The translations under genes and the position numbers were made by a program. A stretch of 3,689 nucleotides of DNA, taken from Escherichia coli (GTDB lineage: Bacteria > Pseudomonadota > Gammaproteobacteria > Enterobacterales > Enterobacteriaceae). Shown here one piece after another: positions 130-3,100 of this stretch. Below the pieces are notes generated by a model. That model searched no databases. It worked only from the letters and a program-made list of their open reading frames with translations, and had not been told where the DNA came from. Position 1 is the first letter of the stretch. Each line of letters begins with the position of its first letter. The stretch lies in the NCBI RefSeq assembly GCF_003334315.1, contig NZ_QOWR01000103.1; one strand, given 5' to 3'.

Positions 130-3100
130 ACTTCGGGCAACCCGGTAAATCCGCTGCTGGGGGCGAAGGTGCTGCCGGGCGAGACGGACCTTGCGCTGCC
201 CGGCCCGCTGCCGTTCATTCTCTCCCGCACCTACAGCAGCTACCGGACCAGGACACCCGCGCCGGTGGGAGTGTTTGGCCCCGGCTGGAAAGCGCCTTCT
301 GATATCCGCTTACAGCTACGCGATGATGCACTGGTACTCAACGACAACGGCGGGCGGAGCATTCACTTTGAGCCGCTGCTGCCGGGGGAGGCGGTGTACA
401 GCCGCAGCGAGTCAATGTGGCTGGTGCGCGGTGGTAAGGCAGCGCAGCCGGACGGCCACACGCTGGCGCGGCTGTGGGGGGCGCTGCCGCCGGATATCCG
501 GTTAAGCCCGCATCTTTACCTGGCGACCAACAGCGCACAGGGGCCGTGGTGGATACTGGGGTGGTCTGAGCGGGTGCCGGGTGCTGAGGACGTACTGCCA
601 GCGCCGCTGCCGCCGTACCGGGTGCTTACCGGGCTGGCAGACCGTTTCGGGCGGACGCTGACGTACCGGCGTGAGGCCGCAGGCGACCTGGCCGGGGAAA
701 TCACCGGCGTGACGGACGGTGCCGGGCGGGAGTTCCGTCTGGTGCTGACCACGCAGGCGCAGCGTGCGGAAGAGGCCCGCACCTCTTCGCTATCTTCTTC
801 TGACAGTTCCCGCCCTCTCTCAGCCTCAGCGTTCCCCGACACACTGCCCGGTACCGAATACGGCCCCGACAGGGGTATCCGCCTTTCGGCAGTGTGGCTG
901 ATGCACGACCCGGCATACCCGGAAAGCCTGCCCGGTGCGCCACTGGCGCGGTACACGTATACGGAAGCCGGTGAACTGCTGGCGGTATATGACCGCAGCA
1001 ATACGCAGGTGCGCGCTTTCACGTATGACGCGCAGCACCCGGGCCGGATGGTGGCGCACCGTTACGCGGGAAGGCCGGAGATGCGCTACCGCTACGACGA
1101 TACGGGGCGGGTGGTGGAGCAACTGAACCCGGCAGGGTTAAGCTACCGCTATCTTTATGAGCAGGACCGCATCACCGTCACCGACAGCCTGAACCGGCGT
1201 GAGGTGCTGCATACAGAAGGCGGGGCCGGGCTGAAACGGGTGGTGAAAAAAGAACTGGCGGACGGCAGCGTCACGCGCAGCGGGTATGACGCGGCAGGAA
1301 GGCTCACGGCGCAGACGGACGCGGCGGGACGGCGGACAGAGTACGGTCTGAATGTGGTGTCCGGCGATATCACGGACATCACCACACCGGACGGGCGGGA
1401 GACGAAATTTTACTATAACGACGGGAACCAGCTGACGGCGGTGGTGTACCCGGACGGGCTGGAGAGCCGCCGGGAATATGATGAACCGGGCAGGCTGGTA
1501 TCGGAGACATCGCGCAGCGGGGAGACAGTACGCTACCGCTACGATGACGCGCACAGTGAGTTACCGGCGACGACAACGGATGCGACGGGCAGCACCCGGC
1601 AGATGACCTGGAGCCGCTACGGGCAGTTGCTGGCGTTCACCGACTGCTCGGGCTACCAGACCCGTTATGAATACGACCGCTTCGGCCAGATGACGGCGGT
1701 CCACCGCGAGGAAGGCATCAGCCTTTACCGCCGCTATGACAACCGTGGCCGGTTAACCTCGGTGAAAGACGCACAGGGCCGTGAAACGCGGTATGAATAC
1801 AACGCCGCAGGCGACCTGACTGCCGTCATTACCCCGGACGGCAACCGGAGCGAGACACAGTACGATGCGTGGGGAAAGGCGGTCAGCACCACGCAGGGCG
1901 GGCTGACGCGCAGTATGGAGTACGATGCTGCCGGACGTGTCATCAGTCTGACTAACGAGAACGGCAGCCACAGCGACTTCAGCTACGATGCGCTGGACCG
2001 GCTGGTACAGCAGGGCGGCTTTGACGGGCGGACGCAACGTTATCATTATGACCTGACCGGAAAACTCACGCAGAGTGAAGATGAGGGGCTTGTCACCCTC
2101 TGGCACTACGATGCGTCGGACCGCATCACGCACCGGACGGTGAACGGCAACCCGGCAGAGCAGTGGCAGTATGACGGCCACGGCTGGCTGAGAGAAATCA
2201 GCCACCTGAGCGAAGGCCACCGTGTCGCTGTCCACTACGGCTACGACGATAAGGGCCGCCTGACGGGCGAACGGCAGACGGTGGAGAACCCGGAGACGGG
2301 GGAACTGCTGTGGCAGCATGAGACGAAACACGCCTACAACGAACAGGGGCTGGCAAACCGCGTCACGCCGGACAGCCTGCCGCCGGTGGAGTGGCTGACG
2401 TATGGCAGCGGTTACCTGGCGGGAATGAAGCTGGGCGGGACGCCGCTGGTCGAGTATACGCGGGACAGGCTGCACCGTGAGACGGTGCGCAGCTTCGGCA
2501 GCATGGCAGGCAGTAATGCCGCATACGAACTGACCAGCACATACACCCCCGCAGGCCAGTTACAGAGCCAGCACCTGAACAGCCTGGTATATGACCGTGA
2601 CTACGGGTGGAGTGACAACGGCGACCTGGTGCGCATCAGCGGCCCGCGACAGACGCGGGAATACGGCTACAGCGCCACGGGCAGGCTGGAGAGTGTGCGC
2701 ACCCTCGCACCAGACCTGGACATCCGCATCCCGTATGCCACGGACCCGGCGGGCAACCGGCTGCCGGACCCGGAGCTGCACCCGGACAGTACACTCACAG
2801 TGTGGCCGGATAACCGCATCGCGGAGGATGCGCACTATGTCTACCGCCACGATGAATACGGCAGGCTGACGGAGAAGACGGACCGCATCCCGGCGGGTGT
2901 GATACGGACGGACGACGAGCGGCCCCACCACTACCACTACGACAGCCAGCACCGCCTGGTGTTCTACACGCGGATACAGCATGGCGAGCCACTGGTCGAG
3001 AGCCGCTACCTCTACGACCCGCTGGGACGGCGAATGGCAAAACGGGTCTGGCGGCGGGAGCGTGACCTGACGGGGTGGATGTCGCTGTCGCGTAAACCGG

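Follow-up and report, generated by a model that had tools for sequence, protein, structure and literature searches.

What gives rise to the YD motifs (tyrosine followed by aspartate) that recur about every 21 codons in a 3,689-nucleotide (nt) stretch of Escherichia coli DNA, contig NZ_QOWR01000103.1 of assembly GCF_003334315.1 (the whole of this stretch is called the window below)? The answer we reach, with high confidence, is that the window constitutes the conserved core of a polymorphic Rhs toxin from E. coli whose delivery is through a type VI secretion system (T6SS), and that the 21-codon periodicity is the YD-repeat array of this core. Frame +1 is the sole open frame, and its translation runs through the entire 3689-nt window without a stop.

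Periodicity and register of the YD array

An earlier note, made from the letters of the window, had listed 16 motif tyrosines between nt 1285 and 2244, described them as YD motifs spaced mostly 60–63 nt apart, and claimed a regular 21-codon periodicity. Each of the 16 coordinates is indeed the first base of an in-frame TAT or TAC tyrosine codon in frame +1. Taken literally, the name YD applies to 12 of the 16, which are followed by aspartate, whereas two are followed by asparagine (nt 1414 and 1798) and two by glycine (nt 1342 and 1618). The successive spacings of the listed tyrosines are 57, 72, 63, 63, 78, 54, 63, 63, 63, 60, 63, 63, 60, 63 and 72 nt, so that 10 of the 15 fall in the range of 60–63 nt (mean 63.8 nt).

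Autocorrelation of the translated sequence, scored with BLOSUM62 over amino acids (aa) 421–760, rose to a sharp maximum at lag 21 (z = 10.1) and had a harmonic at lag 42 (z = 5.3), whereas the flanking lags were at background (z = 1.1 for lag 20 and z = 1.4 for lag 22); among 1000 shuffles, the highest z at any lag was 5.09. Tyrosines coincided with tyrosines at lag 21 in 8 cases (z = 5.2), and the core contains 20 YD dipeptides compared to 4.9 expected from composition. No periodicity was detected by autocorrelation in the N-terminal 320 residues, and only weak periodicity was found in aa 761–1229; therefore, the stretch singled out in the earlier note is the most regular part of the protein. 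The 21-codon periodicity is thus confirmed as real and far beyond chance.

The register of the listed tyrosines stood in 14 of the 16 units, whereas Y448 (nt 1342) and Y540 (nt 1618) are 2–3 residues off. A hidden Markov model (HMM) of the unit, trained on these 14 units with the two 'YG' cases omitted, aligns G455 and G541 to the glycine that is conserved in the turn, and the register shift is also backed by the alignment with Tse5 of Pseudomonas aeruginosa and by the columns of 25 long homologues. In unit 2, L450 takes the motif position and N451 comes next, Y448 being the upstream tyrosine of 'RYxYD'; the position of N451 is occupied by aspartate in 23 of the 25 homologues. In unit 6, the motif position is W537 (tryptophan in 21 and tyrosine in 4 of the 25 homologues), with Y540 at +3; this W537 unit is common to the window core and Tse5 ('EWNRFGLLAALTDCSG'). 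After correction, the spacings are 21, 22, 21, 21, 23, 21, 21, 21, 21, 20, 21, 21, 20, 21 and 24 aa, that is, 10 of the 15 are exactly 21 aa and the range is 20–24 aa. The corrected array is more regular than the original list of tyrosines suggests.

The unit of about 21 residues follows the pattern GxxTRYxYDxxGRLTxxTD, which matches the published motif GxxxRYxYDxxGRL(I/T) or, in its short form, YDxxGRL(I/T) (PMC4436062; PMC10684867). The motif positions are kept across the 25 homologues, which are 33–65% identical to the query. The array extends past nt 1285–2244: weaker units begin near aa 320, continue to about aa 1010 and reappear at about aa 1181, and the unit HMM picks up further units at aa 359, 883, 977 and 1000.

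Family membership and the predicted shell

Searches with YD-repeat profiles, which the earlier note had proposed as a check, matched at every level. The window aligns with the NCBIfam equivalog RHS_core (NF041261) at 2705.2 bits, compared to a cutoff of 2000, with aa 1–1229 placed on profile positions 1–1232 of 1261. TIGR01643 (YD_repeat_2x) matched above its cutoff in 6 stretches (E = 3.2e-50). In the Pfam search, which covered aa 1–1200, RHS_repeat (PF05593) gave 10 matches at E <= 0.001 and 15 at E < 0.03 within aa 320–900; 8 of the 10 stronger matches fall in aa 413–678. The family is very large: at E <= 0.001 it counts 78,391 cluster representatives, among them giant proteins of 3000–7700 aa. 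The features of the window, all on the plus strand, are as follows.

1 to 3689, plus strand: Rhs core of a polymorphic-toxin gene (ATG at nt 1, frame +1 free of stops to the window end, 1229 codons, 64% GC).
4 to 87, plus strand: possible single PAAR-like motif KPAARQGD, aa 2–29 (weak, non-significant matches).
136 to 369, plus strand: DUF6531, N-terminal plug of the shell (Pfam PF20148, E = 2.9e-18, aa 46–123).
958 to 3210, plus strand: full YD-repeat beta-hairpin wall, aa ~320–1070 (Pfam RHS_repeat, unit HMM, predicted strands).
1264 to 2280, plus strand: 16 regular YD units of about 21 aa, aa 422–760 (unit alignment, lag-21 autocorrelation, 32 predicted strands).
3217 to 3459, plus strand: alpha-helical insertion of about 80 aa before the C-terminal plug, aa ~1073–1153 (predicted helices, alignment gaps).
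3460 to 3687, plus strand: start of the C-terminal plug, the RHS-associated core (PF03527, TIGR03696).

Both plug domains are present. At the N-terminal end, DUF6531 is known to act as a plug (PMC10684867). P48 of the query (nt 142) is matched to residue 1 of the Tse5-Shell chain, a cleavage product; the alignment to residues 1–73 of 8cp6_B begins at this proline and suggests a putative N-terminal autocleavage site at N47|P48. At the C-terminal end, Pfam RHS (PF03527) matched aa 1154–1190 (E = 2.6e-18), and TIGR03696 matched the last 49 residues, aa 1181–1229, at 43.6 bits (cutoff 32.5) over profile positions 1–46 of 76. Upstream of the DUF6531 plug, the PAAR-like N-terminal motif resembles the last repeat of PAAR proteins, a resemblance that does not reach significance; if real, the motif would mark the end by which the protein binds VgrG.

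An AlphaFold2 (AF2) model was built for aa 40–1229 from an alignment of 34 sequences, with a mean predicted local distance difference test score (pLDDT) of 88.2 and a predicted template modelling score of 0.81. The model places 32 beta-strands in aa 421–760, two per 21-aa unit, and the strand pattern autocorrelates best at lag 21. In 15 of the 16 units, the motif tyrosine (or L450 and W537 in its place) is the last residue of a 6-residue first strand; a 5-residue turn, consisting of DxxG and the next residue, follows, and 'L-T-x-x-T' forms the return strand. The unit at Y514 is the one exception to this pattern. Altogether, 67 strands of at least 3 residues are predicted between aa 290 and 1110. 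The only long stretch of low confidence (model residues 227–245, pLDDT < 50) coincides with a serine-rich, low-complexity segment, SSLSSSDSS (aa 262–270, nt 784–810), which follows the plug and precedes the first YD units.

Within the C-terminal part of the model, the insertion helices occupy model residues 1035–1102, that is, aa 1074–1141. The insertion is flanked by the conserved anchors PGSFxPLxR and HxYHCDHxGxP; its sequence is variable, and its length ranges from 11 to 119 aa in homologues. Sequence alignments with Tse5 and with RhsA of Pseudomonas protegens skip it, and a search of aa 1066–1160 against PDB sequences gave no match.

The model superposes globally on solved closed Rhs shells. 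The closest of the solved structures in sequence is Tse5 (8CP6), with the T6SS Rhs cores next and teneurins after them. The Tse5 sequence aligns over plug, wall and C-terminal plug (E = 4.5e-115), and Foldseek matched the model to Tse5-Shell (8cp6_B) with template modelling (TM) scores of 0.80 normalised to the query and 0.88 normalised to the target, at 31% identity. Tse5 likewise has a DUF6531 N-terminal plug, YDxxGRL hairpins and an aspartyl protease in its C-terminal plug; what Y, DxxGR and L do in the hairpins, and the roles of the plugs and of the autoprotease, have been described for Tse5 (PMC10684867) and for other Rhs cores (bioRxiv 10.1101/2024.02.26.582050), and the hairpin layout of the model agrees with the published accounts. 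However, the C-terminal toxins of the two proteins are unrelated, and the E. coli core carries its helical insertion of about 80 aa (aa ~1073–1151) where Tse5 has about 25 residues. Tse5 has 40 hairpins (PMC10684867); going by the number of strands, the 67 predicted here suggest somewhat fewer.

A closed shell of YD hairpins, likewise formed by a single chain, is found in other T6SS Rhs cores, namely RhsA of P. protegens (7Q97; sequence E = 8.7e-74), Rhs/Tre23 of Photorhabdus laumondii (7PQ5), RhsP (8H8A/B), Tse15 of Acinetobacter baumannii (8UXT) and the cores of S. bongori and A. mimigardefordensis (8QJA-D). Across the solved T6SS Rhs cores other than Tse5, target-normalised TM scores are 0.63–0.88, sequence E values 1e-32 to 9e-74 and identities 18–25%; in Foldseek, 8qja, 7q97, 7pq5 and 8h8b scored 0.77–0.88 normalised to the target, the TM scores for 8qja and 7q97 spanned 0.75–0.88, and solved closed shells reached 0.85–0.88 over about 1000–1080 residues. 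These cores differ from the E. coli protein in their N-terminal delivery modules (full PAAR, prePAAR-TMD or VgrG fusion) and in their toxins.

More distant relatives share the principle of a hollow shell built from YD/RHS hairpins. These are the TcB-TcC cocoon of Tc toxins (4O9X, 4IGL), whose TcC also has an aspartyl autoprotease, and the shell of teneurins (6FB3), adhesion receptors of eukaryotes that, unlike Rhs, release no toxin. Foldseek found both with probability 1.0 (E = 1e-33 to 1e-40) and with global TM scores of 0.3–0.5; TcdB2-TccC3 (4o9x) scored 0.52/0.32, and the teneurins were likewise more distant. The Tc shell consists of two proteins, is larger and is gated towards TcA by a beta-propeller, whereas here one chain builds the whole shell. 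Among the Pfam matches for aa 1–1200, there were no Tc-specific domains (SpvB, TcdB mid domains, beta-propeller gate). We therefore reject the identification of the window as a Tc-toxin BC component, given the single chain, the lack of Tc-specific domains among the matches and the low global TM scores. The earlier note had spoken of a closed 'Rhs/Tc-toxin shell': the kind of fold was right, whereas membership lies with the single-chain T6SS Rhs proteins and not with the two-protein Tc toxins. In its main point, that the periodicity is the signature of beta-hairpins building a shell, autocorrelation, profiles, the AF2 model and Foldseek all came out as it had predicted. Of the features that define the enterobacterial RHS core family and the single-chain type of T6SS Rhs shell, the sequence shows all that could be tested, with the VgrG-docking PAAR domain doubtful.

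The shell is to be weighed against the reading of YD repeats that prevailed before 2013, in which they form an exposed surface filament that binds carbohydrates or other ligands, not a closed container. Older literature links the YD domain to carbohydrate binding and proposes a binding function at the cell surface (PMC2935791), and a review of 2015 still terms Rhs 'large filamentous proteins' (PMC4436062). However, the target-normalised TM scores of 0.85–0.88 reflect a global superposition on closed shells, both plug domains are present, and the solved relatives enclose their toxin (PMC10684867; bioRxiv 10.1101/2024.02.26.582050); an open filament is accordingly most improbable. On the strength of the model, we accept that the YD array would form the hairpins of a closed-shell wall.

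Genomic setting and DNA-level repeats

Of 5426 complete E. coli genomes searched with megablast, 3901 (~72%) contain the window sequence, at a median of 6 places per genome; 19 of these places are on plasmids. The best match is E. coli 2017.04.03CC (NZ_AP025205.2), which differs from the window at 1 nt of 3689. The differing base, nt 2923, is C in the window and A in the record and changes codon 975 from CCC (Pro) to ACC (Thr), a non-synonymous difference within 'DDER(P/T)HHYHYD'. In 2017.04.03CC, the window corresponds to the first 3689 nt of a 4209-nt coding sequence, annotated as 'RHS element core protein' (WP_229266115.1). Thus, the window is distinguished from WP_229266115.1 by Pro975 in place of its Thr and by being cut to the core. 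Copies that are 99.5% identical in other strains bear the annotation rhsD.

The window stands without flanks, and the vgrG linkage, the toxin tip and the autoprotease motif were read from this matching record. There, an intact vgrG (702 aa; TIGR03361, 623 bits) lies upstream of rhs, with 66 nt separating its end from the start of rhs, and the gene order is vgrG, rhs, dsORF-e4, an IS1 fragment and the ISEc5 (H-repeat) transposase gene ydcC. The full-length gene contains the aspartyl autoprotease motif DPIG-x18-DPLG. The window ends 2 codons short of this motif, with the last 173 codons lying outside, and therefore coincides exactly with the conserved 'Rhs core' in its classical sense, the end of which is defined by the motif PxxxxDPxGL (PMC4436062). 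GC content falls from 64% in the core to 42% in the tip and 28% in the downstream open reading frame (ORF), the latter two values coming from the matching record; a GC-rich core with an AT-rich extension is the textbook layout of Rhs elements (PMC2935791). In its full-length equivalog match, in vgrG upstream, in dsORF-e4 downstream and in its GC-rich core with an AT-rich tip, the locus resembles the RHS core of E. coli RhsD/RhsE (NF041261). An appropriate label for the window is that of an intact Rhs core belonging to the RhsD/E subfamily.

In the matching record, the toxin tip comprises 145 aa after DPLGL, is rich in glycine and has several closely spaced small-residue motifs. It may be an uncharacterised toxin, possibly a membrane-active one. 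The product of dsORF-e4 gave one weak PADLOC match (E = 0.0035), which we do not trust, and otherwise no match in NCBIfam, Pfam or PDB; the ORF is presumed to be a putative immunity gene.

A position of this kind raises the question of whether the locus is a decayed Rhs remnant, comparable to the defective rhsE of K-12, with the periodic array a functionless relic. The matching locus is bounded by yncH and pptA, the position where K-12 carries rhsE, and it lies between yncH and ydcC, beside an IS1 fragment. Rhs loci also often carry orphan fragments (PMC2935791). However, the 1229 codons of the window are open from the ATG, the equivalog match is full-length, and the matching genome has an intact coding sequence of 1402 aa with protease motif and tip, a small ORF downstream and an intact vgrG. 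We regard decay as very unlikely and retain the intact T6SS-delivered toxin as the explanation of the locus.

The earlier note had further held that the repeats are degenerate as DNA and alike only as protein, and this was borne out. Tandem Repeats Finder, run on the window with a minimum score of 30, reported no array, and direct DNA repeats were limited to short, scattered, imperfect matches of 14–47 nt, centred on the motif codons (TAC-GAC-...-GGC-CGC-CTG). Mean nucleotide identity between units was 39.5% (maximum 62%) compared to 28.5% for out-of-register in-frame 63-mers, and mean protein identity between units was 23%. Among the cells in which two units have an amino acid in common, 40.7% also agree in the codon, compared to 45.5% expected from the codon usage of the gene. 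DNA identity shows modest autocorrelation peaks at 63 and 126 nt (z = 4.6 vs codon shuffles); codon sharing not being above expectation, these peaks are a shadow of the amino-acid periodicity. The array is ancient, because the identical order of units is kept in homologues of 33–47% identity. Thus, although the 63- and 126-nt peaks and the few imperfect direct repeats could be read as traces of a recent tandem duplication of a 63-nt unit, making the array a DNA repeat or recombination substrate and not the product of a constraint on protein structure, this origin is rejected as having a negligible probability, in view of the empty repeat search, the low nucleotide identity between units, the negative synonymous-codon test and the conserved order of units.

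Two further observations concern the composition of the window. AT skew is −0.05 to −0.02 over the first 1000 nt and +0.25–0.30 over the rest; the step at about nt 1000 coincides with the start of the YD-repeat region and presumably mirrors the amino-acid and codon make-up of the repeats (GAC, ACG, TAC, CGG, few T-rich codons). On the minus strand, there are ORFs of 353, 240 and 168 aa at 2560–3621, 1753–2475 and 516–1022, respectively, and only 12 stops interrupt the −1 frame over 3.7 kb. When the codons of the sense frame were shuffled, 23% of the shuffles gave a longest antisense stop-free run equal to or longer than the observed 356 codons; the antisense ORFs were therefore rejected as overlapping genes and are by-products of the GC-rich sense frame.

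Proposed mechanism and irregular units

The following mechanism would account for the observations. Each unit of about 21 residues would fold as one beta-hairpin, with 'RYxY' in strand 1, DxxG in the tight turn and 'RLTxV' in strand 2, and successive hairpins would lie side by side in one unbroken antiparallel sheet, coiled in a spiral to give a hollow shell, to which the 16 units would contribute 32 of about 67 wall strands. By analogy with solved homologues, the motif tyrosine would face the lumen. The DUF6531 plug (aa 46–123) would close one end of the shell and the RHS-associated core plug the other, where, as in the homologues, the DPxG-x18-DPxG aspartyl protease would cleave after DPxGL. 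The variable C-terminal toxin, once cleaved, would probably remain enclosed in the shell until T6SS delivery, when it would be fired into neighbouring bacteria on the VgrG spike, again by analogy with the solved systems.

No observation contradicts this explanation, which nevertheless has its limits. For this core the structure is a prediction and not an experimental one. The window contains neither the autoprotease motif nor the toxin, and the corresponding steps are based on the record of the matching genome. An active T6SS using these loci is missing from many E. coli strains. The toxin tip belongs to no recognisable family: searches of NCBIfam, Pfam, PDB and PADLOC gave no match past the DPxGL junction. 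The PAAR-like matches are below significance (Pfam PAAR_motif, aa 3–20, E = 0.28; 9rce_c, E = 0.097, and 4jiv_D, E = 0.46, both for aa 2–29). Finally, the N-terminal motif reads PVNPLLGA, ending in GA, and not PVxxxxGE as quoted for some Rhs proteins (bioRxiv 10.1101/2024.02.26.582050); because of this departure, N-terminal cleavage is uncertain.

Neither the motif nor its structural meaning is new. Feulner et al. reportedly described the periodic YD motif in the Rhs cores of E. coli in 1990, when the rhs genes were first sequenced, and the meaning of the motif as hairpins of an encapsulating shell has been established by structures of Tc toxins and T6SS Rhs proteins since 2013. The origin of YDxxGRL[I/T] is credited to Feulner et al. 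1990 (PMC10684867; PMC4436062). The sequence motif and the structural principle of the YD array are thus both already known, and the value of the present result lies mostly in correct annotation; the inference drawn in the earlier note from the raw sequence was right in observation and in mechanism.

The least canonical unit of the array is that at Y514 (nt 1540–1608, aa 514–536), in which a 10-residue loop replaces the DxxG turn and the turn glycine is missing. Y514 is also the sole motif tyrosine that is invariant in all 25 long homologues, whereas its +1 and +4 positions are not conserved. We tentatively suggest, as a rather unlikely proposal, that the irregular units, of which Y514 is the clearest, may be functional sites of the shell and not the result of decay; together with the insertion of about 80 aa, which varies across the family, the Y514 unit might serve as a site of contact with the enclosed toxin or as a weak spot at which the shell opens inside the target cell. 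If this is true, the Y514 unit and the helical insertion would be candidate sites for the release of Rhs cargo.

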